DNA of 64,000 bases from an uncultured Planctomycetaceae bacterium (lineage in GTDB: Bacteria > Planctomycetota > Phycisphaerae > SM23-33). Shown here in pieces: positions 15,432-42,676 of the stretch. The DNA is taken from the NCBI GenBank assembly GCA_964583095.1, contig CAZOVB010000003.1, forward strand, positions 562 through 64,561. Direction: 5' to 3'. Both the position numbers and the translations under genes were made by a program. The number at the start of each line of letters is the position of its first letter. Positions within the stretch are counted from its first letter, which is position 1. Under the pieces are notes generated by a model. That model had not been told where the DNA came from. It ran no database searches and saw nothing but the letters and a program-made list of their open reading frames with translations.

Positions 15432-15694
15432 CCTTTTTTGACCTCCGGACCCCGGAGTTACACAAGGATCTGTTAACAATAGATTTATGGAGTTTTCACG
15501 CCGAGTTTCTCCGCAATGCCACTGGTCCTGAGCTGAAGAATCAGCGAATAATGACACCGCGAAAGGACACCGAACCATGGCTTTGCGAGGCGGAACCATC
15601 GGCCACGAACCCCAGACGCCCGAGGCGGGCCCCGGGCCCGATACGGACCGTTTGACCCACAGTCACCCCCTTGCTTTGAAGTGAAAGGATCGCC

Positions 15695-16855: not shown

Positions 16856-16858
16856 CCC

Positions 16859-18598: not shown

Positions 18599-18620
18599 TC
18601 GACCCGTGCAGGAGTAATAC

Positions 18621-19907: not shown

Positions 19908-19920
19908 GAAAGGAAACCAG

Positions 19921-20619
19921 ATGCACGCTTTGCCAGGCATCAGAAGAGAAAAACCAGGCTGCTTCCCTGCAGGCAAGAGAGCATTTACCCTGCTGGAACT
20001 GCTGATTGTCATCGCCATCCTTGCCCTGCTGGCCGGAATCATCGTCCCCAGCCTGATGAAAGTCCGCCAGGCCGGATCGCGCGTCACCATCGAAGCCCGC
20101 ATCGCGATGCTAAGCCGCGCTGCCCAGCAGTACAAGCAGCTCAACCAGTACTACCCCGGACAGCGGTATCTTCGTGACGGCTACAACGGAGGGGTCTCCT
20201 GGGTCAAGACCGGCAGCCAGATGCTGGCCCTGTCGATCTTCTCCCCCGAAGACGACGCATCGGAGTTCCCCGCAGACAGCCGCTACTGCTCCCAATTTGA
20301 GAAGGAACTGCTCTTCACCTTCGAAAACGGCGGGACGCAGTACCAGAACACGCTTGCCGACAGCTCCAACGAGACCGCGCCGATCTGCTACTACCCCTGC
20401 GACCCGAGAAGCCGGGACCAGAGCGCCCAGAAGCAGTACAGCAAGGCGTTCGACTGGAACAAGGCCTACACAGGCTCGACTGCGGCGGAGTTCTACGCCT
20501 TCATTACCGACGGAGGCGATGGGAGCGACACCCCCCGCCGGAGCAACGAATTCCTGCTGATCGCTCCCGGGCCCGACGGAGAGTTTTTCACCTCCGACGA
20601 CATCCACAACATGAACTGA
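19921..20619 (+). CDS. GspG-like pseudopilin (prepilin-type N-terminal methylation domain), paralog 1
   Basis: RBS aaaggaaacc. The N-terminus has the prepilin motif G/FTLLELLIVIAILALLAGI, with a Glu at +5. The C-terminus ...LLIAPGPDGEFFTSDDIHN has the GspG-like xGxDGxxxxxDDI signature. Confidence 0.75.
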   Translation: MHALPGIRREKPGCFPAGKRAFTLLELLIVIAILALLAGIIVPSLMKVRQAGSRVTIEARIAMLSRAAQQYKQLNQYYPGQRYLRDGYNGGVSWVKTGSQMLALSIFSPEDDASEFPADSRYCSQFEKELLFTFENGGTQYQNTLADSSNETAPICYYPCDPRSRDQSAQKQYSKAFDWNKAYTGSTAAEFYAFITDGGDGSDTPRRSNEFLLIAPGPDGEFFTSDDIHNMN

Positions 20620-20635
20620 CCGGAAGGACCCAGAC

Positions 20636-21310
20636 GTGATCCCGCGAAATACAAGACAACCCGCCGGAGCTGAGAGGGGCTTTACGCTCCTGGAAGTTCT
20701 GATCGTGATCGCGATTATCTCGATTCTGGTCGTGATCGCCGTGCCCAGCATCTACAAAGCCAGGCAGCAGGCCGACCTGGCCCGATCCCGGGCGAGAATG
20801 ATCTCCCTGGAAGATGGCCTGTCGGCATTTCACGCCTTCGACGGGCGCAACTATTTTCCCGGACAGGACCGCAGGGGCCAGGACGCCCTCCGAAACGGCA
20901 TGACCGGATCTGAACTGCTGGCCCGGGCCATGTGGACCCCGCGGGAGGAAGACTATCTGGACAGCGACACCCCCGACGGATACCCCTCCGGCGTCTATTC
21001 CGGCCATTCCACGGACTACGAAATGGAATACGAGGGCGTTGCCCCCCTGCCCTCCGACGAGTTCGGTTCCGACCCCATGCCCATCCTGTACTACCCTGCC
21101 CGGCCGGGAACGATCGGCAAGAATGCCGACGTCCAGTACGAATACAACCACAACAAAACCATCACGCCCGATGCAAAGCGCAGCGATTTCTACGACTTCA
21201 TCACCTTCCAGGACAGCCGGCCTTACGCGCCGGGCAAGTTCCTCCTGATCTCCGCGGGAATCGACCGACGCTACTTCACCCAAGACGACCTGACCAACTT
21301 CGAAAGATAA
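20636..21310 (+). CDS. GspG-like pseudopilin, paralog 2
   Basis: RGFTLLEVLIVIAIISILVVIAVPSI, and a C-terminus LLISAGIDRRYFTQDDLTNF. Confidence 0.75.
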   Translation: MIPRNTRQPAGAERGFTLLEVLIVIAIISILVVIAVPSIYKARQQADLARSRARMISLEDGLSAFHAFDGRNYFPGQDRRGQDALRNGMTGSELLARAMWTPREEDYLDSDTPDGYPSGVYSGHSTDYEMEYEGVAPLPSDEFGSDPMPILYYPARPGTIGKNADVQYEYNHNKTITPDAKRSDFYDFITFQDSRPYAPGKFLLISAGIDRRYFTQDDLTNFER

Positions 21311-21314
21311 CGAT

Positions 21315-22010
21315 ATGTTCCGACATCCAGACAACCAGGTCCGCCACCGGCCAGGGGTACGTGGACGCCCCTCGGGCTTCACCCTCTTGGAGATGCTGAT
21401 CGTAATCGCGATTCTGGGCCTGCTGGTCTCCATCGCGGTTCCGGCCCTTCTGGCCGTCCGGGAGCGTGCGAAGATCTCCGTCTCGCAGCAGCGCATCGAC
21501 AGCATCGCCGCCGGCGTCGAGCAGTACCACAGCGAACACGGCGATTACCCGCCCGAAAGCATCGACGGTCTCAACAGCGCCCGGACGCTCTGCCTGTACA
21601 TGACCGGCTGGGCCAAAGACCGGAACCACGACGGACAGGCGGCAACCGGGGCATTGGACTTTCACGAAGACGACGGCAACGATGGCTTGGGCTGGCGCAG
21701 GCCCGACTCCCCCCGTGGACGCGTCTACGGACCCTACAAGGGCCTCGACGACGCCCCCCGATCCGACGGGAGCACGCCCACCCTCCTGGACGAGTTCGGC
21801 AATACGATCTGGTATGCGCGTTACGACGCCGCCTCGGGCAAGATGGTAATCAAAGACGATCCCGGTCTGCCCGGCAAATACTTCCAGGATGAAGACGACA
21901 AGTATTACCGGAAGGACTTCGGGGTCTTCTCTGCCGGGCCCGACGGCGACTTCCAGCGATATGCCTCCGACAGCGGATCCGACGACCTGAGCAACTTCTT
22001 ACCCCAGTGA
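21315..22010 (+). CDS. GspG-like pseudopilin, paralog 3
   Basis: SGFTLLEMLIVIAILGLLVSIAVPAL, and a C-terminus FSAGPDGDF...SDDLSNF. Confidence 0.75.
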   Translation: MFRHPDNQVRHRPGVRGRPSGFTLLEMLIVIAILGLLVSIAVPALLAVRERAKISVSQQRIDSIAAGVEQYHSEHGDYPPESIDGLNSARTLCLYMTGWAKDRNHDGQAATGALDFHEDDGNDGLGWRRPDSPRGRVYGPYKGLDDAPRSDGSTPTLLDEFGNTIWYARYDAASGKMVIKDDPGLPGKYFQDEDDKYYRKDFGVFSAGPDGDFQRYASDSGSDDLSNFLPQ

Positions 22011-22525
22011 GCGAATCGATGGCGAGCAAACCCAACAAGACATTCCGAGCCCGGCGCGGCTTTACCCTCATCGAGCTGCTGGTGGTCATGGTGATCCTGG
22101 CGATCATCATCGCCCTGGCCGTGGCGATCGGAGGCTACATCAACGAGGAATCCTCCCGAAAACGGACACAGACGGCCCAGGAGATCCTGAAGACGGCCGT
22201 GGACATGTATGAAAAGGCCTACGACGGCCGGGCCCCCAGCGATGAGTGGGATTCCTCCTGGTCGGTGACCAAGCCCGGCGACGAAGCCGAGGCCACCACC
22301 GTTGCGCTGCTCCAGAGGCTCAAGGAAGTGCCCAAGAGCTGGAAGATCGTGGAGAAACTCGAAGAGGAGATCTTCGAAGACGCCCAGACCCCCCTGACCG
22401 ACGGCTTCGGCTACCCGATGAAGTACGTCGACGACGGCGGACGGGGCAAGGCGCCGGTACTGATCTCCACGGGGCCCGATGGGAAATTCGGTACAGAAGA
22501 CGACATTCGATCGGACAAACAATGA
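22007..22525 (+). CDS. GspG-like major pseudopilin, paralog 4
   Basis: RGFTLIELLVVMVILAIIIALAV, and a C-terminus GYPMKYVDDG...VLISTGPDGKFGTEDDIRSDK, typical of GspG. The start overlaps the previous stop by 4 nt. Confidence 0.8.
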   Translation: MSESMASKPNKTFRARRGFTLIELLVVMVILAIIIALAVAIGGYINEESSRKRTQTAQEILKTAVDMYEKAYDGRAPSDEWDSSWSVTKPGDEAEATTVALLQRLKEVPKSWKIVEKLEEEIFEDAQTPLTDGFGYPMKYVDDGGRGKAPVLISTGPDGKFGTEDDIRSDKQ

Positions 22526-23271
22526 CAAGCCTGAAAACAACCCGGATGCACCGCAAGAGCAACCTTGGCTTCACGCTGATCGAGATCCTCGTGGTTCTCG
22601 GCGTCATTGCGATCCTCGTCGGGATCACCCTGCCGGGAATCATCGATATCTTCAGTTCCGGATCCGAAGGCCAGGCCTACAGCGTCACCAACTCGCTGCT
22701 TCGCACGGCCCGGGCCTATGCGATCGAGAACAGCGTCTACACGGCCGTGCACTTCCAGCCCGCCGACCGCGACCTGGAGGAATTCAGCGACCGCTGGTCC
22801 ACGTTCGCCTCGATCATGGCCTGGAACGAGGAAGACGGCTACTTCCAGATGCCCGCGGGGTTCGAGCCGGTGGCCATTCCCGGCGGCATGGCCGTCGGAG
22901 CCGTCGACGACCGCTTCTTCAATTCCGACGGCTCGATCAAGAACATCACCCAGCCCGAAAAGCTCGTCACCGCGACGGTGATCTTCTCCCCGGAGGGCAA
23001 GGTCGTCCGCTGGGCGCCGACCTCCAACGGCCACGCGAAATTCGACCTCGCCGACGGCGCCCTGTTCGACAAGGACGATGACCTGCGGATCTGGGACAAC
23101 GACAACAGCACCTGGAATATGCATACCCTCGGTGTTACCGCGGTGACATTCTTCCCCCTCCAGGAGTACATGAGCCTTACCAACACATCATCGCGAACGT
23201 ACTTCCTCCAGGACAAGGCCGCCTTTACCGGAATCAACCTCTACACCGGACAACTGTTCCCAAGGAAGTGA
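22522..23271 (+). CDS. minor pseudopilin (prepilin-type N-terminal domain)
   Basis: The ATG sits at 22522 within ATGA, overlapping the GspG stop. The N-terminus is ...LGFTLIEILVVLGVIAILVGITLPGII. Confidence 0.65.
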   Translation: MTSLKTTRMHRKSNLGFTLIEILVVLGVIAILVGITLPGIIDIFSSGSEGQAYSVTNSLLRTARAYAIENSVYTAVHFQPADRDLEEFSDRWSTFASIMAWNEEDGYFQMPAGFEPVAIPGGMAVGAVDDRFFNSDGSIKNITQPEKLVTATVIFSPEGKVVRWAPTSNGHAKFDLADGALFDKDDDLRIWDNDNSTWNMHTLGVTAVTFFPLQEYMSLTNTSSRTYFLQDKAAFTGINLYTGQLFPRK

Positions 23272-23276
23272 TTCAT

Positions 23277-24107
23277 ATGCAAACTCCATTTGAACATCAC
23301 GTTACACCCGACCGGCGGGGCTTTACGCTGGTGGAAACGATGTTTGCCATCGTGATCATGGGCATTGCACTGACCATGGTAGCCGGCGTGGTCCCGGTCG
23401 GCATCGAGCTGAGCCGGTCCAGCGTGGGCGCGGTGGAATCCAAGGTCGGCTCCCGCAACGCTGTGACCTTCATTCGGTCCATGCTCACCCGCCGGCACAT
23501 GCTTGACCAGGGGGTGACGCGGCAGTTCGTGGAAATCGACGTCGACTCGCTGTTGACCACAGACGTCTATATCGATGATCCCGGCGACTACGAAACCACC
23601 AACCTGACACACCCGCTTGCCCGCAAGTCCGACGATGACCTGGTCGAGGACGAACGAAAGGGCTTCAGACTCCTGGCCCGGAGGATGGATTCCGAGCCGG
23701 ACCCCAGCCTCGCCCGCAACGACTACCTCCTGGCCATCTTCTACTACCTGGAGAACGAGATCTTCGAAGAAGATCCGGACGAAGACGGCAATGAGATGGC
23801 CCTGAAACCCATCGGCATCGACTCGGTCGACCACGATGACCGGCAAGTGAGCATCTCCAACCAGTCGCAGGCCAAGTTCTTCCAGCCGGGCAGTATCGTA
23901 CTTGGTCAGAACGGCTCCTGGGCGCGGATCGAAAGCATCGACGGCAAGACGATTCAGCTCGACCGCGCCCTGAGCGGCTCCCAGTCGGCCATCGAGCCTC
24001 TCTGGACCATCTACGAACACGACGGGGACGCCGACGCCCCCCTGCCGGTCATGAGCCCGGGACTGGGGCTTCTCACCGTCCGCACCGCATTGAGGAACGC
24101 ACCATGA
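23277..24107 (+). CDS. minor pseudopilin (prepilin-type N-terminal domain)
   Basis: The RBS AGGAAG lies 9 nt upstream of the ATG at 23277. The N-terminus is RRGFTLVETMFAIVIMGIALTMVAGVV. Confidence 0.6.
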   Translation: MQTPFEHHVTPDRRGFTLVETMFAIVIMGIALTMVAGVVPVGIELSRSSVGAVESKVGSRNAVTFIRSMLTRRHMLDQGVTRQFVEIDVDSLLTTDVYIDDPGDYETTNLTHPLARKSDDDLVEDERKGFRLLARRMDSEPDPSLARNDYLLAIFYYLENEIFEEDPDEDGNEMALKPIGIDSVDHDDRQVSISNQSQAKFFQPGSIVLGQNGSWARIESIDGKTIQLDRALSGSQSAIEPLWTIYEHDGDADAPLPVMSPGLGLLTVRTALRNAP

Positions 24108-25024
24108 GACACACACCCACAATGAGAACGCGACGGGGCATGACGCTGATCGAACTGCTTGTCACCGTGGTGGTTATCGCCGCGATCCTCTACGTGTTCA
24201 ACATGGTCCTCACCAGCAGTCAGCAGTTCGTGACGACCACCCAGAGCCGCTCGCGTGCCAACAGTGCGGCCGAGGCCATCGCGAGGACGATCCGCTCGGA
24301 CCTGGAACGGATATCGCGCCAGGGATTCCTGTTGATCTGGCACAAACCCTCTGAAGGCTATCGAATGTGCTTCACCCAGGCCGGCAGGTTCAACTCCACC
24401 CTGGCAGATAAAGGCACCCCCGCCTACGCGACGCGCGCAACCGGCGCGGTGGTCGCCTACGGCATGGCCGACAACACGCATCCGGCCTATCCCGGAAAGG
24501 TCCTGCTCCGCAAGCAGCTTCTGCTGGTCGGAACCAGCATGTCCGATCCGCTGCCTGCCGATGCGGATGGCGGCGACCCCGACAGCGGTTCGGATCCGTT
24601 TTTCGGACCCACCAACCCGTCGATCAGCCCCACTCTGGGCACCATCCAGTTCACGCGGGAATCGAAGCTGCTTGACCAGATCCTGGGCGGTCCAAGTGAT
24701 GAATCCTTCATGGAGTCCGTGCCCGAATCGATCCGGGTTCCTGCAAACAACAACCTGAATGAGGTCAGGGACCTCTGGGAAGTCCTGAGCCCGGGGATCG
24801 AACTCGTCGGCGTCCGTTACGCGATGCCCGACCCGCATACAGGAAAGCCCAAGTGGCATGCGATCGACCTGAGCAAGAGCTACCAGAATTTCTGGACGCA
24901 CGAGGATCCCTCCGACTGGCCTTTGGCGCTACACCTGATATTCCGTCTTAACGATCCGGACCTGCCCGAGGAGTTGCAGAACGAATCGACGCTTTACCAC
25001 GTGGTCGCCCCGATCGGCCAGTAA
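24104..25024 (+). CDS. minor pseudopilin (prepilin-type N-terminal domain)
   Basis: RRGMTLIELLVTVVVIAAILYVFNMV. The start overlaps the upstream stop by 4 nt. Confidence 0.6.
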   Translation: MRHTPTMRTRRGMTLIELLVTVVVIAAILYVFNMVLTSSQQFVTTTQSRSRANSAAEAIARTIRSDLERISRQGFLLIWHKPSEGYRMCFTQAGRFNSTLADKGTPAYATRATGAVVAYGMADNTHPAYPGKVLLRKQLLLVGTSMSDPLPADADGGDPDSGSDPFFGPTNPSISPTLGTIQFTRESKLLDQILGGPSDESFMESVPESIRVPANNNLNEVRDLWEVLSPGIELVGVRYAMPDPHTGKPKWHAIDLSKSYQNFWTHEDPSDWPLALHLIFRLNDPDLPEELQNESTLYHVVAPIGQ

Positions 25025-25042
25025 ACTTTGCAGAGGTGCACG

Positions 25043-27730
25043 ATGAAACGCACACATAATCAACGAGGTTCGGTCCTGCTGATGGTGGTTGGTCTTCTGA
25101 CCATCCTCTACATGCTCCTGGGCACCTTCCTGATCGTAGCCCGCTATGATGAGTCCGAGGCCCTGAGCCTGGCCACCGAAGCCCAGAACGATCCCGGCGC
25201 ATCGGGTGTGGTCGGCCTGATCAAGCAGCGACTGGCCGATGACCTTCATACCGATGCCAACAATCCCTACGCGTCCCTGACGCCGGATCCGCAGGGGTGG
25301 AAGGGCTTCATCGACTACCCGGCCGAGGATGTCGACGATCACCTGGCCACCAGCTACGACCCAGCTCTGTTCCGTTGGAAGCACCTGACCAACCTCGTGG
25401 GACTGGATTCAGCCAAGGTCACCAACGTCGTTTACAATCAGGACGTCACCTCCCCGGACTACGAGTATTTCCTCGACCTCGACGGCGACAAGCATGAAGA
25501 CTCCTATCGTTTCGAGACCGGCATGGTGGATCCCAAGGGCAGGGCCATCTACGGATTCGTCCGCATCCTGGATACGTCCTCGTTTTTGAACATGACGATC
25601 GGCAACGGACCCGACTGCCTCTACTATGCCCCCGGATCTCTGGAGGCTAACTGGACTGCCTCCGGCGGAAATGGCGTGGTGGACAAGTGGAATGATTGGA
25701 GCAATATCGGGTTGGTCACAACGATGCTCACCACACCGTCCGATATTGACGTAGCCAAGCTACTGGATTCTGCCGTCCTTGGCGCCTTCCATTACAGTCG
25801 CATCGACACCTCCACTCCAACGACGAGCAACACCTACTGGTACGAGTTCGCCCAGCATCCTCACAGGCCCGGTCCCTATATGGGTCTACCCGAGCCCTCG
25901 GACCCTTACAGGCCCTTCGACCCCGGGGAGGAGATCTTCCTGCGGTACACGGGCCCTTCGTCCGACAACGCCGGGCTCCTGCCCCAGTTGATCATCGACT
26001 CCAATCCCAGCGACCGGATCGATCGCAAACGCATATTCACTACGACCAGCGTCTCGCGGCAGCTTCTTCGCCGCCCGAAGACGGGCTCTGCCGATCCCAA
26101 CGACGACCGCATCAAGCGGATGCTGCTCTCCCGGAATTTCGAGCCCGACCAATGGCTCTATGAGCAGTTGGTCGCCGCCGGGGCCGGTAAAAAAGAGGCC
26201 GCCCACTTCCTGGCCAACCTCTGGGCGTACACGTCCCCCGACCAGGCCCACAACAACGCCTTTGCCTTCAGTCCCTCCGGCGAGAGTTTTAAGGTCTACG
26301 GGGCCGTCGAGCAGTTGGTCATCACCGATGCCTACGTCTACTACAAGCCCCAATCGACTCCCGGCACGGACGATTCCGGCTGGGCGGTAGCCATTGAACT
26401 GATGAACCCCTGCTGGAAAAGCGTCAACATCCAGAACTACGAGGTCGAAGGCTTCGACCTGGGCACCCTGGGTCCGACCGCGGTAGCCCCTGGCAACTCG
26501 ATCGTCCTCTGGACGGTCGGCAACGGCCCCGGTGCGACCACGCCGCTGGACTCCTCGGATTTCAAGTTCCCGCCCGAGTACGAAGTACCCGAACTGGCCA
26601 CGCTGGCCAAGGATGCCGGAACGATCGAGATCACCCGCGACGTCGGCACCGAGAGCGATATCCCCGTCGACAAGGTCTCGGCCTTTGATCTGGGGTACAC
26701 CAAACCCGCCACGGGGGAAGCTGCCGTCAGCGCCCTGGCCCTGCGAGACGACGACTGGGGACCCTACAACCCCGCCGCTGGACAATACGGCGGGCGCCAG
26801 CGCGCCCTGGTGGCGGAGTACCAGACATCTGCTCCGGGAATGAACTTCAGCAGCGCCGGGGGCAATGGGCTGGCCGCCTCGTCTCTTTCCAACGTGAACC
26901 AGGGCTTTGGCCTCCACCGCCTCGGCGGGGTTCCCTACAACCTGGGCGAGCTGGCGCGGGTCTTCACCGTCGGGCCCGACGACAGCGGCAACGACCTGCC
27001 CCACCAGCTCAAGAGCCTGGCCGGCAGCGTCTCACGCGGAAAGCTCAACTTCCATGCCAATGCCGCAAGCGGGGACGGCAACTACCCCACGCTGCCCTGG
27101 GCGACGATTCTGCCCGAGCTGGTGGACGTGCTGCCCGGCGACAGGACCAGAGGGCCGCTTGACCCTGCTGATGGCCACGTCGAGCTCCGACGCGTCTACG
27201 GGCGGGTGAACATCAACACCGCCTCGCGTGAAGTCCTGGCCGCCCTGCCCTGGCCGGACGAACTGCTCTACCGATCGGCTCCGCTGGTCATCGATGCGAC
27301 CGAGAGAGCTCGAATCGCCGAGTACATCCAGTGCTACCGCGACGGTGAGCAAGTCAGCGGGGGGCCCGATTACTCCAACCGCGCAGCGGCCAGCGGAATC
27401 GGCGGGCTTCGCGACGGCGTGACCCACAACGGCTTCCTTACCCCGGGCGAACTGGCCATTCCCTTAGGCGACTATGTAGCCTCCCGGCTTTCGCCGGCCG
27501 AGAGGAAGCGGGCGGATTACGCCTCCATGTTCGGCCGCTACGGCCTGTACCGGGCGGTAAGCAACCTGGTCACCGTCCAGAGCGACACGTACGTGGTGCT
27601 CCTGGCCCTGCAGATCAAAGACAGCCGGGGCCGGCCCAAGACGTGGCGATACATGGCCTTGCTCGACAGGAGCATCGTGGGCAAGACCGGTCAGCAGCCG
27701 GCCGTGCTGATGTTCACCAAGCTGGAGTAG
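25043..27730 (+). CDS. giant GspK-like minor pseudopilin (about 895 aa)
   Basis: The RBS GAGGTG precedes the ATG at 25043. The N-terminus QRGSVLLMVVGLLTILYMLLGTFLIVAR is GspK-like. The C-terminal VYGRVNINTASREVLAALP resembles the GspK helix-hairpin-helix segment. The long Pro/Gly/Asp-rich middle region is unusual for GspK. Confidence 0.5.
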   Translation: MKRTHNQRGSVLLMVVGLLTILYMLLGTFLIVARYDESEALSLATEAQNDPGASGVVGLIKQRLADDLHTDANNPYASLTPDPQGWKGFIDYPAEDVDDHLATSYDPALFRWKHLTNLVGLDSAKVTNVVYNQDVTSPDYEYFLDLDGDKHEDSYRFETGMVDPKGRAIYGFVRILDTSSFLNMTIGNGPDCLYYAPGSLEANWTASGGNGVVDKWNDWSNIGLVTTMLTTPSDIDVAKLLDSAVLGAFHYSRIDTSTPTTSNTYWYEFAQHPHRPGPYMGLPEPSDPYRPFDPGEEIFLRYTGPSSDNAGLLPQLIIDSNPSDRIDRKRIFTTTSVSRQLLRRPKTGSADPNDDRIKRMLLSRNFEPDQWLYEQLVAAGAGKKEAAHFLANLWAYTSPDQAHNNAFAFSPSGESFKVYGAVEQLVITDAYVYYKPQSTPGTDDSGWAVAIELMNPCWKSVNIQNYEVEGFDLGTLGPTAVAPGNSIVLWTVGNGPGATTPLDSSDFKFPPEYEVPELATLAKDAGTIEITRDVGTESDIPVDKVSAFDLGYTKPATGEAAVSALALRDDDWGPYNPAAGQYGGRQRALVAEYQTSAPGMNFSSAGGNGLAASSLSNVNQGFGLHRLGGVPYNLGELARVFTVGPDDSGNDLPHQLKSLAGSVSRGKLNFHANAASGDGNYPTLPWATILPELVDVLPGDRTRGPLDPADGHVELRRVYGRVNINTASREVLAALPWPDELLYRSAPLVIDATERARIAEYIQCYRDGEQVSGGPDYSNRAAASGIGGLRDGVTHNGFLTPGELAIPLGDYVASRLSPAERKRADYASMFGRYGLYRAVSNLVTVQSDTYVVLLALQIKDSRGRPKTWRYMALLDRSIVGKTGQQPAVLMFTKLE

Positions 27731-28832: not shown

Positions 28833-29282
28833 TCAAAGCGCGGGTTCGGGATCGTCGGCAACGGCGAGACGCTCGACCTCCTCCAGGACACGGGGCAGGT
28901 CCAGGCAGCAGAGAAGCAGGTCCCCCCAGGTCGTGAGGCTCTCGACCAGCGGCTCGATGCGGGCGGGCAGTTGGCCCGACGGGATGTGCCTGTCCTCAGG
29001 CTCTGCCGCTACGACATCTCCCGTCCTGTCGACGAGAAGCCCGGCCTGGACCTCATCGCACTCCACAACCACCACCGCCCTGCGAGGCGAGTCGGTTTTC
29101 TCCAGGCCCATCATGCCCGACAAGTCCAACACGGGCAGAAGGCTGCCGCGCAGGTTCATCAGGCCCGAGATCACATCGCTGCATGGAGGAACGGGAGTCA
29201 ACGGGCCCGGACGCAGGATTTCCCGGACGTGGTGGACGCGCAACCCGAACCATTTGCTGCAGATACGCACCAGAAGCATGCC
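28833..29282 (-). CDS. CheW-like coupling protein
   Basis: ...[22 protein letters not shown]...[18 protein letters not shown]... matches the CheW domain consensus. The start is taken at the internal Met (MLLVR); the ORF continues upstream to 29366. Confidence 0.6.
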
Positions 29283-29627
29283 ATTGTCGGGCCGGATATC
29301 CCCGGGGGCGATCTGCCGGTTCGGCTGGGATCGCTGGATTCTTCTTTGCAAAGGCCTGGGACGCAATGGATTCTCCCGTTTAGGGCAAAATCGCTGCCTG
29401 CCAACAGAGTATTCTCATCGGTCATCCCGGGGGCCAACTTGTCCAGGAAGCCTGTTGAGCCGGCCGGCCCCGCAGGGCGCAAAGCTAGTCAAGTCGGGGG
29501 GTCTTTGGGACGATGTAAGGGCCGTATAGATGGAAATACTCCAAAGGGCACCGAGCTTCTGAGTATTGGCGTGGTCTCCCCCTGGCTTCGCAGTCTCGGA
29601 AGACAGGCACCGTCAAGGGGCACCACG

Positions 29628-32374
<2,747 letters not shown>

Positions 32375-32387
<13 letters not shown>

Positions 32388-34003
32388 TCGCCGAAGACGA
32401 CCGGATCTCGCGCCAGGCGCTGGATTCGCTGATGAAAAAATGGGGCTATGACACCGTCTGTGTCGAAGACGGACTGGCCGCCTGGGAAAGACTCCGCGCC
32501 CCCAATGCGCCCAGACTGGCCATCCTGGACTGGAACATGCCCGGCATGAGCGGGCTGGACGTCTGCAGGCACGTCCGCGAAGCCCTCTCGGGCTCCTATG
32601 CCTACCTGATCATGCTCACCGCGCGCGATCGCAAAGAGGACATCGCACAGGGGATCGAAGCAGGGGCCGATGATTACATCATCAAGCCCTTCGACGCAAA
32701 GGAGCTTCGGGCCAGAATCCGCGCAGCCGAGAGAATCCTCGATCTTCAGCAGGAACTGCTGGGGGTCCAGTCCTCCCTGCGGTCTTCCCAGGCGGAGCTT
32801 TCGGCCATCTTCACCAGCGCCCCCACGGCCATCCTGGTCATCGACAAGGACATCCTCGTTCGCAATGCCAATCCCGCGGCTACCCAACTGGCCAACCGAT
32901 CGCTTTCGGAGATGATCGGACGCAGGCCCGGCGACGCAATGGGGTGCGAACATGCCAGGAATCTCGGCTGCGGAAACTCGCCGGCCTGCGAGATGTGCAG
33001 GCTGCGAAGCATCGTCAGTGACCTGGTCGCCAATGGCTGTCCGCATCATCGCGGGGAGGCCTCCCTGCTGAGAAAAGAAGGCGCAAGCCTCAACCAGTAT
33101 TTCTTCCACGTGACGTCCTCACCCCTGCGGGTCGGCGGAGAAGAGATGGCCCTGCTGTGCCTGGAGGACATCACCCAGCGAAAGGCCGCCCAGCGCGAAC
33201 TGGAAATCCTCAACGAGACCCTCGAATCCCAGGTGCAGGATCGAACCGAGAAGGTCCAGCAACTTCTCAAGCAGAAGGACCAGTTCGTCAATCAGCTCGG
33301 GCACGACCTGAAAACCCCCTTAACGCCCCTGGTGGCCCTGCTTCCGATGCTCAGCAAACGCATCGAGGACCCCAAGTCCCAGGAGATCCTCACCGTGACG
33401 ATGGACAACGTCCGCTATATGCGGCGACTGGTCGAAAAGACCCTCAGCCTGGCCCGGCTGAACTCATCGGCCGTCCAGTTCGACATGGAACCGATCGATC
33501 TGCTCACCGAGTCGCGAAACATTGTCGCCTCGATGGGGCCCATCCTCACAGAGAATCAATTGCACGTGGAGAACAACATCACCGAGCCGACGGTCGTGTT
33601 GGCCGACCACATCCACCTGCGCGAGGTCTTCCACAATATCATCTCCAACGCAACCAAGCACACCCCGCCCGGCGGGACGATCACCCTCAGCGCCTTTGTC
33701 GGCGAGCAAGACATGATCCACGTGGCCATTACCGACACAGGCTGCGGGATGAACGCCGATCAACTCGATCGCATCTTCCTGGAGTTTCATAAGGCCGACG
33801 AATCGCGGCATGACCGGGGCAGCACGGGGCTGGGGCTTTCCATCTGTCAGTGTATCATCCAGCGCCATGGGGGGCGCATCTGGGCCACCAGTCCGGGGAT
33901 CGAAGAGGGAACCACCATCACCTTTACGCTGCCTCCCCCCCACAGGGCGGGGCAGGACCTTTCAGACACTCAGCAGCAACAGGCACAGGAGAACCAGACA
34001 TGA
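32375..34003 (+). CDS. response-regulator / histidine-kinase fusion (REC - PAS - HisKA - HATPase)
   Basis: Starts [14 protein letters not shown]...[12 protein letters not shown] (a receiver domain), overlapping the upstream stop by 13 nt. A PAS domain, the H-box (…[12 protein letters not shown]…) and the ATPase G-boxes (TGCGM…GLGLSICQ) follow. Confidence 0.8.
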
Positions 34004-34377
34004 CCGCCCGAATACTGACTGTAGACGACGATCCTTCCATCCGGACGACCGTCGGGATGGTCCTGGAAGAGGCCGGCATAGAAGTCGAATTCGCCTCCAG
34101 CGGCCCCGAAGCCATCGAGAAGATCCAACAGGGGTTCAGGGGCCTGATCCTCCTGGATATCATGATGCCCGAGATGGATGGATGGCAGACGCTGGACACC
34201 ATCGTCCAGAAAGGCCTCTACCCGGGCAACGTTGTCTGCATGCTCACGGCCGTGCTGGACCCGGGGCCGGAAATGGAGTCTCTCAAGGAATTCGTCCTGG
34301 ATTACGTCCGCAAGCCCTTTACCCCCGAAGAACTCGTCGCCGCCGTAGAAGACGCACTGAGCTACTGCCTCGCCTGA
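34000..34377 (+). CDS. receiver (REC) domain corresponding to the CheB N-terminal domain; it ends at an in-frame UGA followed by the methylesterase domain
   Basis: [17 protein letters not shown]...LILLDIMMPEMDG...KPFTPEEL has the canonical receiver-domain residues. The ATG at 34000 sits within ATGA, overlapping the previous stop. Confidence 0.75.
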   Translation: MTARILTVDDDPSIRTTVGMVLEEAGIEVEFASSGPEAIEKIQQGFRGLILLDIMMPEMDGWQTLDTIVQKGLYPGNVVCMLTAVLDPGPEMESLKEFVLDYVRKPFTPEELVAAVEDALSYCLA

Positions 34378-34413
34378 CATCCCGCTCCCGCATCCAGATG
34401 GAAATCGATTGAT

Positions 34414-34989
34414 ATGAGCCTTAACCTGGTCCTGCTGGGCATCTCCACCGGTGGCCCGAAAACCTTACGCAAACTCGTGCCCAACCTCGGACGCCTCAAT
34501 GCGGCCGTGGTCCTGGTTCAGCATATGCCCAAGTTCATCAACCAGTCCGTCTGCAAGACCCTTGCAGAGTCTTCCGAGATGGACGTTTACCTGGCCCGCG
34601 ACGGCCAGAAGATCCAGACCGGGGGATTTTACGTAGCCCCCAGCGAAGTCCATCTGAGCCTCTCTGCCAACAACAGCATCCAGCTCCAGGGCGGCCCGAA
34701 GGTCTGCTTCGTCTGCCCCTCGGTGGATGTCATGATGAAATCCGTCACCCGTTCCAGCGGCAAGATCCTTGGAGTGGTCATGACCGGCATGGGCAAGGAC
34801 GGCGCGGAAGGCCTGGCCCATCTCAAGAGCATCGGAGCAGAAACCATCGCACAGGACGAGCAGAGCAGCGTGATCTGGGGCATGCCCGGCGCGGCCGTGG
34901 AAATGGGCGTCGCCGATCACGTCCTCGCTCCGGAAGATATCGCTCAGTTGATCCGGTCCCGGGTGGGCGTGGCACCGGTGGCGGCCTGA
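34414..34989 (+). CDS. CheB-type protein-glutamate methylesterase catalytic domain (no receiver domain on this ORF)
   Basis: GISTGGP (Ser nucleophile), VQHMP (His) and MTGMGKDGAEG (Asp) together form the CheB catalytic triad context. It is in the same reading frame as the upstream receiver ORF, separated by one TGA and 12 sense codons. Confidence 0.8.
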   Translation: MSLNLVLLGISTGGPKTLRKLVPNLGRLNAAVVLVQHMPKFINQSVCKTLAESSEMDVYLARDGQKIQTGGFYVAPSEVHLSLSANNSIQLQGGPKVCFVCPSVDVMMKSVTRSSGKILGVVMTGMGKDGAEGLAHLKSIGAETIAQDEQSSVIWGMPGAAVEMGVADHVLAPEDIAQLIRSRVGVAPVAA

Positions 34990-35102: not shown

Positions 35103-35210
35103 TCAGCCCATCTTGCGGAAATCCTGCACGATCAACGCAACAGGTCCCAAGGCGACCATCCCCAGCACGCTTACGCACATCAGGACGTATCCAAGCAGTC
35201 TGAGTTTCAT
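35103..35210 (-). CDS. candidate 35-aa hydrophobic small protein, absent from the ORF track because it is under 60 aa
   Basis: The minus strand reads GGAGGG-N6-ATG, then MKLRLLGYVLMCVSVLGMVALGPVALIVQDFRKMG, then a stop. It has a strong RBS and a single TM-like helix. Confidence 0.3.
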   Translation of the reverse strand: MKLRLLGYVLMCVSVLGMVALGPVALIVQDFRKMG

Positions 35211-35486
35211 TTCAGGCCCTCCAAAAGCCTATCCCTACGGTGTAACATCCCATGCCCGGCCTCCTCCAGGCCAAGCATGTGTTATTGTAGCCCCAAAGCG
35301 CGTTTCTGTGGCAAGCGTTTTGTCAAGAAATCCACATTTTTACGTAAACCCCTTTCCTCGGGGATGTTGACGCCCTGTCCGCCCTGACTTTCCCGCACGT
35401 TTTCCGACCGGAAAAGGCAAAGACTCTTTGAGACCCCGGGGTAGAAATTGCTTGTAAACGCCGCCCGGTTTCGACAGGCTCGATTC

Positions 35487-36260
35487 ATGATGAAACGCGC
35501 CTCTCCATGGTTGGTGTGGTTGTTGACGGCCCTGCTCTGGGCCGGGGGCTGCAAGACCCCTGAACCGGGCCCCGAGGCCCTGGCTGTCCGGCAGACCCGC
35601 ACCTTTCTGGACCGGGGGGGACGGATCGACGCCCCGCTGGAATCCGGCTCTTCCAGGCTGCACGAGGCCTGCAGGAAGGGCTACGCGCGATGGGCGCGTT
35701 TCTGCCTCGAAGCCGGGGCCGACCCCGACAGGCCCGACCCGGCCGGAAGCCGTCCTGTGCATATCGCATGCTCCAGCGGGGACTTCCAGACCCTCAAGGT
35801 TCTCCTGGAGTACCAGCCGGACGTAAATGCACCCGACAGTCGGGGGCGGGCCGGCCTGCACCGGGCCCTGGAGTCCAGGAACTGGCCCGCAGCGAGGCTC
35901 CTGCTCATGGGACGTGCCCTGCCCTGTCGGGCCGATCGCAAGGGATACACCCCCCTGCACCTGGCCGCTGAACAGGGCCCCCCGGACATTCTGGCCAAAC
36001 TCCTTCGCAAAGCCCCCCACTGCGTAGATGCCCAGGATTCCCAGGGCCGGACGCCCCTGATGTGCGCCGCTGCGGAAAACCGCCCCGAGGCCGTCCACCT
36101 CTTGCTCCAGGCCGGGGCCGATCCGGACATCCTTGACGCCCGGGGGCGAACAGCCGCCATGCGCAGCTCGCTGCCGGCCATTCACGAAATGCTCCGGTCG
36201 ATACCCGATGGGTCCAATTCCGCCACGGAGCAAAATGATTCACTCCAAAACGCCGATTAG
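35487..36260 (+). CDS. ankyrin-repeat lipoprotein
   Basis: Signal/lipobox MMKRASPWLVWLLTALLWAGGC. At least four ankyrin repeats follow (…GSRPVHIACSSGDFQTLKVLLEYQPDVNAPDSRGRAGLHRA…GYTPLHLAAEQG…GRTPLMCAAAENRPEAVHLLLQAGADPD). Confidence 0.75.
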   Translation: MMKRASPWLVWLLTALLWAGGCKTPEPGPEALAVRQTRTFLDRGGRIDAPLESGSSRLHEACRKGYARWARFCLEAGADPDRPDPAGSRPVHIACSSGDFQTLKVLLEYQPDVNAPDSRGRAGLHRALESRNWPAARLLLMGRALPCRADRKGYTPLHLAAEQGPPDILAKLLRKAPHCVDAQDSQGRTPLMCAAAENRPEAVHLLLQAGADPDILDARGRTAAMRSSLPAIHEMLRSIPDGSNSATEQNDSLQNAD

Positions 36261-37341: not shown

Positions 37342-38265
37342 CTATCCGGGCTTGTCCTTCTTGTTGCGCACGGTGAGCCGGGGCGCCTCGCCGGCCACAA
37401 GCGAACCGGCCGAGATGCTCTCCATCACAAACGTGTTGCCCGCGATCGTCACGCCCCGCCCGATGACGGTATCTCCGCCCAGGATGGTGGCATTGGCGTA
37501 GATGGTCACGTTATCCTCGATGGTCGGGTGGCGTTTGAGGCCCTTGATGGCCCGGCCTCGCTCGTCCTTGGGGAAGCTCTTGGCCCCGAGTGTCACGCCC
37601 TGATAGATCTTCACGTTGTCGCCGATCTCGCTCGTCTCGCCGATGACCACACCGGTGGCATGGTCGATAAAGAACCGCTTGCCGATAGTGGCCCCCGGAT
37701 GAATGTCCGTACCGGTCAGGCTGTGGGCGTGCTCGGAGATGATCCGCGGCATCAGGGGTACCTCCAGCTCGAACAGCTCGTGGGCGATCCGGTGGAGTGT
37801 CACCGCGTAGAAGCCGGGGTAGCAGTAGACGATTTCGTCGATGCTTCTCGCGGCGGGGTCCCCGTCGTAGGCCGCTTCGGCATCCAGGGCCAGCACCTCT
37901 CGCAGCTTGGGGATCCGGGCCAGGAACGCCCCGGTGATCCTCTCGGCCCGCTCGCGGCACTGCTCACTGGAGACTCCCTCGCAGTCTCGGGCGGCGTGGA
38001 AGCAGTGGTTGATCTGCTCGGAAAGCCCCCGCCCGATACGGTTGAGCAGTTCGCCCAGGTGGTAGCGGACGTTCTGCATGTCCAGTCGCTCATCGGTGTG
38101 GAAGCCCGGGAAGAGCACGCGCCGGATCTCGCCGGTCAGGGCGACGATTCGCGCGTTGCTGGGCAGGGCCTGATGCCCGATGCGGTGGGTCGCCTGGCTG
38201 CGGCGGTAGCTTTCCAGAATCGGTTCGAGCAGATCGGGCAGGTTTTCACTCCAGGAATCATTCAT
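37342..38265 (-). CDS. cysE: serine O-acetyltransferase
   Basis: The C-terminal hexapeptide left-handed beta-helix reads ...[37 protein letters not shown]...[19 protein letters not shown].... The SATase N-terminal helical domain is present. The start is taken at MNDSWSEN; the long upstream ORF extension is a GC-bias artifact. Confidence 0.8.
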
Positions 38266-39434
38266 CGTTTTCGGGCCTTGGGCAGTGCATTGGGCAGTTG
38301 ACGTTTCATCTCGTCGAAAAAGGAGACGCGGTCTTCGGCGTACTTTTCCGCTTCCAGCGGTTCGATAATTCCCTGCCGGACCAGCATCACCAGGCTGCGT
38401 TCCATTGTAGTCATCCGCTCGGAAGGGACATCCTTGGTCTTGGTCTGCATGTGGGAGTAGATCTGCTCCAGCTTGCGAAGGCGGATGAGATTGCCCACCG
38501 CATAGCTGTTGGCGAGAATTTCCATGGCCACCACGCGCCCCTGACCGTCGCTTCGAGGCACGAGCTTCTGGCTGATGACATATTTGAGTCCCAGGGAAAG
38601 CTGCGAGGAAACCTCGTCCTGCCGGGTCGGGGGGAACATATCCAGAATCCGGCTGACGCTTCCCCGGGCATCTCGCGTGTGCAGGGTAGAGAACACCAGG
38701 TGCCCCGTCTCGGCTGCGGTGAGCGTCCAGGCGGTGGACTCCACGTCGCGCATCTCGCCGACGAAGATCACGTCCGGGTCTTCCCGAAGGCAGTCGCGAA
38801 GCCCCCGGCTGAAACTGGGCACGTCGCGTCCCATCTCCCGCTGGGAGATGATGCCCTGGTGGCTCTGGAGGCGATACTCGACGGGGTCTTCTAGGGTGAT
38901 GATCCTGCAAGGCCTCTGGCGGGCGATCCGGTCGATCAGCGAGGCGATGGTCGTGCTCTTGCCCGCGCCGGTCACGCCGGTAATCAAAACCAGGCCCTGC
39001 TGCATCTGGATGATGTCCTCCCAGATGCCGTTGGGAAAGCCGATTTCCTCCACCGGCGGGGGCAGGCCCTCCAGGGCACGGACGGCGATGCAGGGGCCAT
39101 CGTTTTCGTAGAAGATATTCAGGCGGTAGTGCATCTGCTCGGTCGTCGCGGAGGTATCGACGCTTCGGTCCTGTTCAAGCGCCTCCAGTTCGGCCTCGCT
39201 GAGAAACACGCCGATCATCCGCCGGAGAATCTCCCCGGTCAGGGGCTCACCCTCCATCGGCTGGAGCCTGCCGTCGGTTCGATAGATCGGGGGCAGCCCC
39301 ACCTTCAGGTGCATATCCGAGACGCGCATGGACCCCCACTGGACAAAGGTATCCAGCAGGTCCACGAGGCTGAGCATCCGGCCCGGCTCGACGGGATAAA
39401 TCGGACTTTCCAATGTCAGTCTGGAGCTTTCCAT
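38262..39434 (-). CDS. PilT/PilU-family ATPase, an orphan copy outside the main pilus cluster
   Basis: [18 protein letters not shown] (Walker A), ...[21 protein letters not shown]. The start is taken at MESSRLT. The stop overlaps the cysE start by 4 nt. Confidence 0.75.
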
Positions 39435-39750
39435 GGCCTGTTCCCTTGCCTCCCTCCGGGGGGGCAGAATGTCCACAATACCCGCCTGGGCACCGCGGAA
39501 CAAGCCGCGCTTTGGCCGGGCCGGCAGCGGGCGTCGAAAAATAGATTTTTCAGCAATACCCCCCGGGCCATTCCGTTATCTTGTAGGTAGGCCAAACGGC
39601 GGTCCCCCTGCGCCCGCAGGCGCCGTGCCCACATCCATGCAGAGAGAGAATCGCGGGACCGTTCGCGAGAGAGATTCCAGGCAGCACAGACAACCCTCAG
39701 CCTAGAGCCAAGCAAGGCTGTGGGGAAGATGTTCAGGAAAGGGAATCACC

Positions 39751-41313
39751 ATGAGGACACCTCCAACGCCAACCCTTCCGGCCTTGATCCTCCTTACAGG
39801 CCTCGCAGCAGCGTCGCCTCCCAGCGTGTATGAGTCGCAGGTCGAGCCGACGCCGGCCGGCGACCTGGACCGGGCCCTCTTCGCCGCCTGGAAAGCCAAG
39901 GGAATCCAGCCGGCCCGGGTCTGTACCGACGCCGTCTTCATCCGACGAGCCTACCTGGACGTGCTGGGCATCCTTCCGGAGGTCCAGGAAGTCCAGGAAT
40001 TCCTGGCAGACAAGGGCACCGACAAGCGGACCAGGCTCATCGACGAACTGCTCCAGCGAGAAGAGTTTGCCGACTACTGGGCCATGCACTGGAGCGACGT
40101 GCTGCGGGTCCGCTCGGAGTTCCCGATCAATCTCTGGCCCAATGCCGTCCAGGCCTATCATCGCTGGCTTCACGAAGCCCTGTCCCGGAACCTCCCGTAT
40201 GATCAGTTTGCCCGGCAGTTGCTCACACTCAACGGCAGCAACTTCCGTGTCCCAGCCGTCAACTTCTTCCGCGCCGTCCAGAGCAAGGAGCCGGAGAACC
40301 TGGCCTCGGCGGCCGCACTGGTCTTCATGGGAGATCGGATGGAGACCTGGCCTCAGCAGAGACGGGAGGGACTGGAAGTCTTCTTCCAGCGGGTCGGGTA
40401 CAAGTCCACCAAGGAGTGGAAGGAGGAGATCGTCTTCTTCGACACCTCCAAGCCCCATACACCCGAAGGGATTCTGCCCGACGGAACCCGTGTCAAGCTG
40501 GCCCCCGATCAGGACCCCCGCACGGTCTTTGCCGACTGGCTGGTTCGCAAGGACAACCCGTGGTTCGCCAAGGCCATGGCCAACAGGACCTGGGCCTGGG
40601 TGTTTGGCCGGGGGCTGATCCACGAGCCCGACGACATCCGCAAGGATAACCCTCCTTCCTGTCCCGAGGCGCTTGCGGTGCTGGAAAAGCGGTTCATCGC
40701 GTCGGACTACGACTTCAAAGCCCTGCTTCGGGAGATTCTCACCTCCACCACGTATCAGCTTTCCTGCGTCCCGCGCAGCGAGAAACCCGAAGTGCAGAGC
40801 TTCTTCGCCGCGTACCCGCTGCGGCGTATCGATGCAGAGATTCTCATCGACATCCTCTGCAAGGTCACCGGGACCACCGAGGAGTATCACAGCAAGATCC
40901 CCGAACCGTTTACCTGGGTCCCCGAGCACCAGCGGACGGTACGGCTGGGTGACGGGAGTATCACCAGTTCCTTCCTGGAGCTGTTTGGACGTCCCGCTCG
41001 CGACAGCGCGATGATGTCGGCCCGAAGCAACGAGTTCACCCCCGCACAGGCGCTGCACCTGCTCAACTCCAGCCACATCCGCAACAAGATCGAGCGCGGG
41101 GGCAAGCTCCGCAGCCTTCGGGGGCGGATCAACCGCAGCCCCGACGAGGCGCTGGAGGTCATCTACCTGACGTTGCTTTCGCGCAAGCCGACGGCCGAGG
41201 AAGTCCAGGCCATCAAGACATACATGGAAGATAAATCGGTTCCGAGGCACCTGGCCTCTGTGGACATTATCTGGGCACTGATCAACTCTCCGGAATTCCT
41301 GTATCGCCATTAA
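39751..41313 (+). CDS. DUF1549/DUF1553-domain protein (planctomycete PSCyt2/PSD1-type)
   Basis: The signal peptide is followed by …DELLQREEFADYWAMHWSDVLRV… (DUF1549-like). The C-terminal …LLNSSHIRNKIERGG…EVIYLTLLSRKPTAEE… is DUF1553-like. Proteins of this kind are characteristically paired with a DUF1501 gene. Confidence 0.6.
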   Translation: MRTPPTPTLPALILLTGLAAASPPSVYESQVEPTPAGDLDRALFAAWKAKGIQPARVCTDAVFIRRAYLDVLGILPEVQEVQEFLADKGTDKRTRLIDELLQREEFADYWAMHWSDVLRVRSEFPINLWPNAVQAYHRWLHEALSRNLPYDQFARQLLTLNGSNFRVPAVNFFRAVQSKEPENLASAAALVFMGDRMETWPQQRREGLEVFFQRVGYKSTKEWKEEIVFFDTSKPHTPEGILPDGTRVKLAPDQDPRTVFADWLVRKDNPWFAKAMANRTWAWVFGRGLIHEPDDIRKDNPPSCPEALAVLEKRFIASDYDFKALLREILTSTTYQLSCVPRSEKPEVQSFFAAYPLRRIDAEILIDILCKVTGTTEEYHSKIPEPFTWVPEHQRTVRLGDGSITSSFLELFGRPARDSAMMSARSNEFTPAQALHLLNSSHIRNKIERGGKLRSLRGRINRSPDEALEVIYLTLLSRKPTAEEVQAIKTYMEDKSVPRHLASVDIIWALINSPEFLYRH

Positions 41314-41323
41314 GAGGTGAAGC

Positions 41324-42676
41324 ATGATGAGTCGCGAACAAATCTACACGCTGTCCCGGCGAGGACTGCTCAAGGGCGCCCTGGGCGCAGGGGCCGGAGC
41401 CTTCCTGGCAGGGCCGACGTTCTGGCCCGAGCTTCTCTCGGCCGCTCCCACGCCCAAGGCCGCCAAGGCCAAGTCCATCATCCAGATCTGGATGTGGGGT
41501 GGACCGTCCCACATCGACACGTTCGACCCCAAGCCCGATGCCGGCCAGGACTACACCGGGCCGCTGAACAAGCCCATCGAGACCAACGTCAAGGGCGTCC
41601 GGATCGGCCAGCTCCTGCCCCTGCTGGCCAAGCAGGCCGACAAATACGCAATCCTGCGAAGCATGACACACGGCATCAACGGCCACGAGACCGCCTCCTA
41701 CATGGTCCAGACCGGTCGCAGGCCCGGCGGACGCATCAGCTTCCCCAGTGTCGGGGCGGTGGTCTCGTACTTCAAGGGATACGAGGCCGGCTACAAGGGG
41801 CTCATCCCGCCCTACATCGTCATCACCCGCCCGCAAGGCCGATTCTCCGAGGCCGGCTTCCTGGGCAATCGCTTCAAGCCCTTTGCTACCGGAGGGAATC
41901 CCGCCCGCGATCCCTTTGCGGTCGAGGGCGTGGTGGCCCCGGGCATCACCCGCCAGAGGCAGCAGAGCCGCCGACAGCTTCTGGGCAAGCTGGACTCCCT
42001 CGGGAAAGTCCTCAAGGGAACCGAGCAGATGCGGGAGCACCGCGAGGCGACCGAAAAAGCCTACGACCTGATCCTCGGAGATGCCGGAAAGGTCTTCGAT
42101 CTTACCCAGGAACCCGACGAGCTGCGCGACCGTTACGGCCGGACCGCCTTTGGCCAGTCCTGCCTGGCCGCCAGACGACTGGTCGAACAGGGCGTGCCCT
42201 ACATCACCATCAACTATCCCGGGTGGGATACCCACAAGCAGCACTTCCCCCAGATGCAGCAGAAGCTGCCCGAACTGGACAAGGGCTTCGCCACCCTCCT
42301 GGAAGACCTCAGCAGCCGGGGCCTGCTCGAGAGCACGATCGTCTGGTGGACCGGGGAATTCGGCCGAGGCCCCAAGGTCCAGTGGGAAGCGCCCTGGAAC
42401 GGCGGCAGGAGCCACTATGGCCGATGCTTCACATCCATCCTGGCCGGGGGCGGATTCCAGGGAGGCAGCGTCGTGGGCAGCTCGGACGAGAAAGGCATGA
42501 CCGTCAAGGACCGCCCCATCTACCCCTGGGACCTCATTGCAAGCCTCTATACCCAGATGGGCATTCCGCTGGACGCAAAACTCCAGCACCCCCTGGGACA
42601 GAAGGTGCCCGTTCTGGCAGCCGACACGGACGACAAAGACGGCGGACAGATCCGCCCCCTGACCGAGATCATGTAA
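41324..42676 (+). CDS. DUF1501-domain protein (sulfatase-like fold) with a Tat signal
   Basis: The twin-arginine signal is SRRGLLKGALGAGAGAFLAG. It is paired with the upstream DUF1549/1553 gene. Confidence 0.6.
   Translation: MMSREQIYTLSRRGLLKGALGAGAGAFLAGPTFWPELLSAAPTPKAAKAKSIIQIWMWGGPSHIDTFDPKPDAGQDYTGPLNKPIETNVKGVRIGQLLPLLAKQADKYAILRSMTHGINGHETASYMVQTGRRPGGRISFPSVGAVVSYFKGYEAGYKGLIPPYIVITRPQGRFSEAGFLGNRFKPFATGGNPARDPFAVEGVVAPGITRQRQQSRRQLLGKLDSLGKVLKGTEQMREHREATEKAYDLILGDAGKVFDLTQEPDELRDRYGRTAFGQSCLAARRLVEQGVPYITINYPGWDTHKQHFPQMQQKLPELDKGFATLLEDLSSRGLLESTIVWWTGEFGRGPKVQWEAPWNGGRSHYGRCFTSILAGGGFQGGSVVGSSDEKGMTVKDRPIYPWDLIASLYTQMGIPLDAKLQHPLGQKVPVLAADTDDKDGGQIRPLTEIM

Follow-up and report, generated by a model that had tools for sequence, protein, structure and literature searches.

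In the canonical CheB of Escherichia coli and Salmonella (PDB 1A2O, 6YMZ) a receiver (REC) domain, a linker and a methylesterase domain lie in one chain; in 1A2O the receiver occludes the active site, and the catalytic triad of the Salmonella enzyme is S164/H190/D286. Single-domain receivers are ubiquitous, among them the stand-alone CheY-like protein 3CG4 of Methanospirillum hungatei, which is of uncharacterised function and has no known esterase partner. Receiver-less forms of CheB are also already known, the CheB of Campylobacter jejuni being a methylesterase without a CheY-like domain (PMC3879368). UGA followed by C is an inefficient terminator in E. coli (PMC5289835), and UGA-C read-through is represented by the E. 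coli prfB context and phage Q-beta A1. The planctomycete cassette described here, which combines a receiver-less esterase with a single-domain receiver, is uncharacterised.

The window, a 64,000 nt stretch of DNA from an uncultured Planctomycetaceae bacterium, contains a REC and a methylesterase open-reading frame in the same frame, parted by a single UGA. The original prediction regarded these as one CheB gene interrupted between its domains, whether by a recent split, by programmed read-through or by a nonsense mutation or sequencing error. In our analysis they are very probably two separate, intact genes which close a four-gene phosphorelay operon of a planctomycete, probably a Phycisphaerae-like one, the shared frame and stop-free spacer being incidental. 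The first gene (34000..34377, + strand) encodes a stand-alone single-domain response regulator of 125 aa (Pfam Response_reg), the second (34414..34989, + strand) a REC-less CheB-type protein-glutamate methylesterase/glutaminase of 191 aa (Pfam CheB_methylest, full length), and the two are separate proteins in the public gene calls for the source contig of 205,791 bp. The REC gene stops at a TGA at 34375-34377, with C as the next base. The 36 nt intergenic spacer that follows (34378..34413, + strand), which we read from the sequence as the translation-initiation region of the esterase, gives HPAPASRWKSID (H-P-A-P-A-S-R-W-K-S-I-D) in the REC frame with no second stop. The esterase ATG at 34414 is in the frame of the REC gene and has a Shine-Dalgarno-like GGAAA at 34400-34404, 9 nt upstream, whilst the REC ATG at 34000 forms a 4 nt ATGA overlap with the end of the upstream REC-PAS-kinase gene at 34003. 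The observations behind the prediction were therefore sound, namely the two domain identities, the shared frame with its 12-codon stop-free spacer and every coordinate given for it, the esterase's own ATG with an RBS-like sequence, and the ATGA coupling of REC to the kinase. The interpretations placed on them, as an interruption, a recent split, a pseudogene, an error or read-through, fared less well, as set out below.

The esterase scores 183 bits on CheB_methylest (PF01339), for which the cut-off is 24, and covers the complete profile (1-174 of 174). Its catalytic triad, S11, H37 and D129, does not vary among the 12 relatives of alignment A1 and aligns to the STGG, QHMP and GMG(N/K)DG motifs of PDB 1chd and 3sft; matches to 1chd and 1a2o reached an E-value of ~1e-33. 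In its full-length PF01339 domain and Ser-His-Asp triad, and in the receiver encoded immediately upstream, the locus resembles canonical CheB, yet the receiver and the esterase are on separate polypeptides, divided by the stop at 34375-34377 in an arrangement that is kept in orthologues. Full-length CheB models confirm the distinction: the esterase alone scored 187-190 bits on the NCBIfam CheB models NF001965 and NF009206 (cut-offs 293 and 342 respectively), and a hypothetical 329 aa fusion, in which the REC stop was replaced by Trp, scored 232 and 226 bits, below both cut-offs. Metagenome and genome scans with alignment A1 returned, among the matches listed, mostly distant canonical CheBs with a best identity of 53%, without the source genome among them, and only ~12 of 160 loci were usable.

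The receiver matches Response_reg at 82 bits across the whole profile (1-111 of 111) and retains the acidic pocket D9/D10/D11, the phospho-acceptor D53, T83 and K105. With PF00072 only and no output domain, it is by domain content a single-domain response regulator. Among solved structures its best match is 3cg4, a stand-alone CheY-like protein, at 95 bits; all other receivers score ≤61 bits, and the receiver of the CheB structure 1a2o gave no match at E ≤ 1e-12. To judge from these comparisons REC is not a CheB-type receiver; it is no nearer to the receiver of CheB than to generic CheY-like receivers, which is a further difference from the canonical enzyme. It differs from 3CG4, its best solved relative by sequence, in that its gene adjoins that of an esterase.

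The two genes stand at the end of a tightly coupled operon on the + strand. The first operon gene (29628..32387, + strand; Pfam) encodes a hybrid histidine kinase with the arrangement PAS-HisKA-HATPase-REC-REC-Hpt; its start is approximate, the reading frame being open from 28971. It is followed, with a 13 nt overlap, by a gene for a REC-PAS-HisKA-HATPase kinase of 542 aa (32375..34003, + strand; Pfam and sequence reading), which in turn overlaps the REC gene by 4 nt, and the 36 nt spacer then leads to the esterase. A cheW-like gene (28836..29366, - strand; Pfam CheW, 90 bits) is divergent from the operon. A promoter and terminator scan within the operon gave nothing above shuffled expectation. 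The cassette of hybrid kinase-Hpt, REC-PAS-kinase, REC and esterase occurs in the same order in the orthologous loci L001, L003, L167, L169 and L177-L180. Orthologues of the hybrid kinase (861-899 aa) are present in L001 and L177-L179, the 542 aa REC-PAS-kinase gene is likewise called in L006, and cheW is often divergent just upstream of the cassette in orthologous loci, with a CheW gene at the equivalent place in L001 and L177-L179. The REC/esterase gene pair recurs in Planctomycetota and other phyla, the whole cassette in closer relatives.

We scanned the six cassette genes and 43 further open-reading frames, all within positions 21-60040 of the window, against Pfam and found no CheA, CheR or MCP; besides the esterase, the sole chemosensory family in these scans was the CheW at 28836-29366. 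The cheA/cheR/MCP cluster that goes with a canonical CheB is thus missing from the scanned 21-60040, and the upstream kinases are of the HisKA type, not CheA. The esterase shares the receiver-less state with the CheB of C. jejuni but differs from it in having a dedicated REC gene directly upstream, inside a phosphorelay operon, in lacking a CheA, CheR or MCP nearby, and in its lineage, Planctomycetota.

Separate genes are the norm in this family and not a recent departure from it, contrary to the "interrupted" or "recently split" CheB that had been proposed. Among the best 120 esterase homologues, 117 consist of the esterase domain only, in most cases with ~190 aa, and only three (P0046, P0086 and P0092, 318-324 aa) carry a REC domain. 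All of the best 120 REC homologues are REC-only (119-143 aa), those with a name belonging to Phycisphaerae, Brocadiaceae and Scalindua. We compared the REC/esterase junction in 18 distinct orthologous lineages, the window included. Five junctions are in frame and stop-free: those of the window (36 nt spacer), L001 (30 nt), L167/L172-176 (39 nt) and L003-5 (33 nt), all with TGA+C, and that of L088 (30 nt, TAG+G). A sixth, in L087 (27 nt), is in frame with a second stop within the spacer. The other 12 are out of frame, with spacers of 32 nt in L184/185, 40 nt in the L178 group (TGA+G), 73 nt in L181, 29 nt in L168, 22 nt in L169 (TAA then TAG), 22 nt in L089/90 and 19 nt in L091, and in L182 28 nt to a likely TTG start or 82 nt to the called ATG; in the remaining four the genes overlap, by an ATGA (4 nt) in L093, 8 nt in L007, 11-17 nt in L008 and 11 nt in L092. 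Over the 18 lineages spacers therefore range from 19 to 73 nt and overlaps from 4 to 17 nt, with TGA, TAG and TAA all in use as stops. Adjacent genes on the same strand share a frame by chance in one case in three, and the observed 6 of 18 is exactly this share (binomial p = 0.59), so the in-frame placement of the REC stop and the esterase looks to be no more than coincidence.

What is constant is where each gene ends and begins. REC ends at a homologous position (~residue 124-125) in all split lineages, across several phyla, and every split esterase gene starts ~8 codons before the GISTGG motif, the start codon being ATG except in L182, where it is likely TTG; closer relatives carry a Shine-Dalgarno-like purine tract ~9 nt upstream of that start. 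A fixed REC stop position and a fixed esterase start, combined with a varying frame, imply two independently translated genes. The comparison indicates that the UGA is the normal, ancient stop codon of REC and that the two-gene state predates the spread of the family over several phyla. The original prediction had itself named orthologues with different frames or spacing as the sign of a stable split, and this is what the orthologues exhibit. More generally, in-frame open-reading frames parted by one UGA can mimic an interrupted gene, and in this case it is the orthologues that reveal a stable pair.

Among the alternatives, leaky or programmed read-through at UGA-C in the sub-clade of the window survives best, although we consider it very unlikely. 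The locus would then yield three products, REC alone from the majority of ribosomes, a 329 aa fusion from a fraction of them, and the esterase alone from its own ATG, the amino acid inserted at the UGA being probably Trp, possibly Cys or Arg. The TGA+C context, a poor terminator in E. coli (PMC5289835), is present at the junctions of the window, L001, L167 and L003, each with an in-frame, stop-free spacer. A natural fusion (P0086), whose linker is of similar length, can be aligned with the read-through product over its full length, and its existence means that this product would probably fold. With the described UGA-C systems the locus shares the UGA-C and an open in-frame continuation. It departs from them in that the frame varies among orthologues, in the lack of a stimulatory structure, and in a downstream domain with its own conserved start and RBS. 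Programmed read-through would be expected to conserve both the frame and a stop-free continuation, but the two genes are out of frame in 12 of the 18 lineages, and the spacer of a further one contains a second stop. The closest relatives are the most telling: L003 and L184/L185 agree in the REC C-terminus (IALTG) and the esterase N-terminus (MPLRNLIVMG), and a single 90%-identity cluster holds their esterases, yet the spacer has 33 nt in L003 and 32 nt in L184/L185. This difference of one nucleotide lies within a purine run and puts the L184/L185 genes out of frame. Similarly, L178 is sister to L003 in the tree, yet has TGA+G and a 40 nt spacer.

The sequence between the genes also behaves as an initiation region and not as a linker. 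Its 3' half, GGA(A/G)..TCGATT followed by ATG, is common to the window and L003/L184, the latter carrying AAGGAG + 9 nt, so that what is conserved between the genes is a Shine-Dalgarno region with the 9 nt behind it, and not a peptide. A resemblance between PASRWK in the window and PVSRCK in L167, with several synonymous differences, was considered as peptide conservation and discounted, since these codons are also the purine-rich Shine-Dalgarno region and the alignment had been chosen post hoc. Third-position GC in the pooled spacers (~0.61, a hand count) is near the overall composition of the window (0.63) and below that of genes (roughly 0.8). When the 100 nt surrounding the stop were folded as RNA for five lineages, z-scores were +0.18 to +1.28, less structure than shuffled sequence, with the window at +1.28; low structure is as expected for an initiation region, and neither a stimulatory structure nor any other RNA signal was found by folding 3' of the stop. 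TGA+C is moreover a common ending in the window, terminating ~12% of 49 open-reading frames picked by codon-position GC (TGA as a whole ends ~53%).

The strongest form of read-through would be confined to the window sub-clade, where all three junctions (window, L001 and L167, the esterases of the latter two sharing 82% and 75% identity with that of the window) are TGA+C, in frame and stop-free at differing spacer lengths. Setting the window aside as the selected case leaves two of two close relatives, a chance of 1 in 9. If selection had kept the weak UGA-C and in-frame spacer here for a minor tethered REC-esterase, a single locus would supply free esterase alongside a minority, phosphorylation-gated fusion enzyme, but this we rate as very unlikely too. 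Background read-through would give rise to traces of a fusion, which would probably fold.

A recent fission, or a nonsense pseudogene in which a fused REC-CheB gained a stop and is now decaying or newly split, is extremely unlikely. The layout of two in-frame ORFs with a single stop between them would suit it, as would the existence of the fused relatives P0086, P0046 and P0092. Of these, P0086, with 324 aa, is encoded by a true REC-esterase open-reading frame, free of any interruption, in two metagenome contigs; its full-length alignment with the hypothetical read-through product has 46% identity and an E-value of 3e-100. It has a shorter linker in place of the stop and spacer, and has no Met at the esterase start position. 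REC and esterase are accordingly a fusion/fission pair, as had been anticipated. However, the nearest relative of P0086, P0245 (80% identity), is a stand-alone 191 aa esterase, and P0086 groups with split lineages in a tree built by neighbour-joining from concatenated REC and esterase sequences, so that the fusion looks secondary; fused forms in this family, which lie among split lineages in the tree, look to be rare and derived. The homologous REC end in split lineages of several phyla and the conserved downstream start codon also argue against a recent event. The functional residues are all intact, catalytic and phospho-acceptor residues being kept in both proteins, and the stop recurs in every orthologue, neither of which fits a nonsense pseudogene.

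We modelled P0086 with AlphaFold from an alignment (A3) with full-length CheBs as anchors. The domains were predicted confidently (pLDDT 94), the inter-domain orientation being uncertain (pTM 0.69). The model esterase matched 3sft with a TM-score of 0.89, and the model REC matched 3cg4 with a TM-score of 0.89, an rmsd of 1.5 Å and 39% identity. The whole chain, compared with 1a2o, gave a TM-score of 0.54 and an rmsd of 18 Å and superposes domain by domain only.

A sequencing or assembly error, or a UGA recoded as selenocysteine, has nothing beyond the in-frame UGA itself in its favour and a negligible probability: error is excluded by the recurrence of the same TGA+C in orthologue contigs assembled from several samples, a second assembly (L006, Logan SRR15425352) being identical across the junction, and selenocysteine is ruled out by orthologues with TAG or TAA at the homologous stop, there being neither a hairpin 3' of the UGA nor an Rfam match at the junction.

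On this comparative evidence the locus is a pair of separate genes, and no canonical CheB that has been interrupted or recoded. For this pair we propose the following scheme. The esterase would be translated from its own ATG behind the Shine-Dalgarno-like GGAAA. The hybrid kinase/Hpt protein and the REC-PAS-kinase may phosphorylate the small REC, which in turn may modulate the receiver-less esterase in trans, or compete for phosphate on its behalf. An action of REC in trans, either together with the esterase or upon it, is suggested by their persistent adjacency and by the rare natural fusions, which by Rosetta-stone logic point to a functional partnership; the occasional switching between split and fused states in the family supports such a partnership. 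The esterase would then demethylate or deamidate a methyl-accepting receptor encoded elsewhere. In a cassette of this kind an adaptation enzyme of the chemotaxis type would be wired to HisKA-type kinases in place of CheA. Just upstream of the cassette lies a large type IV pilus-like cluster (13716-25024), and a link between the two is speculation only.

Whether the receiver (REC) and CheB-type esterase genes lie in one reading frame differs even between otherwise near-identical relatives, as the REC-esterase spacers of two orthologous loci, L003 (5968-6000) and L184 (1245-1276), are 1 nt apart in length, the site of the difference being a purine run which reads gggaaaaaagg in L003 and gggaggaagg in L184. 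Owing to this single nucleotide, REC and esterase are in frame in the former and out of frame in the latter. A natural fusion of the two domains, P0086, is encoded at 3001-3975 of L170/L171, and its closest relative is P0245, a split-type esterase of 191 aa, with which it shares 80% identity. The P0086 gene is located outside the kinase operon, with an IS240-type transposase fragment nearby; downstream of the gene lies a REC fragment of 75 aa.

Divergent to the kinase operon of the window lies an orphan cheW (28836-29366, minus strand), whose position relative to that operon is kept in the orthologous loci L001 and L177-L179. The hybrid-kinase ORF as listed (28971-32387, 1138 aa) runs too far 5′, its first part (28971-29627) extending over the opposite-strand cheW; as hybrid-kinase orthologues are only 861-899 aa long, the true start is placed near 29628. 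No CheA, CheR or MCP was found among the window ORFs scanned (the six cassette genes and 43 others, 21-60040). The presence of cheW and the esterase suggests an uncharacterised chemosensory-like module, with HisKA-type kinases as its drivers.

Downstream of the cassette, a small hydrophobic ORF of 35 aa (MKLRLLGYVLMCVSVLGMVALGPVALIVQDFRKMG; 35103-35210, minus strand) is convergent with the esterase gene and is called in the same location in L006, the second assembly identical to the window across the REC-esterase junction, and in L167 and L172-L176, its place in L001 being occupied by a 57-aa ORF. Also on this side is an ankyrin-repeat protein gene (35448-36260, plus strand), and such a gene likewise comes after the esterase in L002 and L006.

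Immediately 5′ of the cassette is a type IV pilus/T2SS-like cluster (13716-25024), in which Pfam identified three T2SSE ATPases, two of them with MshEN domains, one T2SSF platform protein and six proteins with the N_methyl prepilin motif; a 900-aa protein just 3′ of the cluster (25028-27730) had zero Pfam matches, and a further PilT-like ATPase is encoded 3′ of the cassette (38262-39503, minus strand). A 181-aa protein (12830-13375, plus strand), in which RF-1 (GGQ) is the sole Pfam domain, resembles an ArfB-type ribosome rescue factor or peptidyl-tRNA hydrolase, with no evident connection to the UGA between the REC and esterase ORFs. Finally, genes for a PSCyt2/PSD1 (DUF1549/DUF1553) protein and then a DUF1501 protein occupy 39751-42676 (plus strand), a pair typical of Planctomycetota and thus in keeping with the names that the closest homologues bear: Phycisphaerae, Brocadiaceae and Scalindua.
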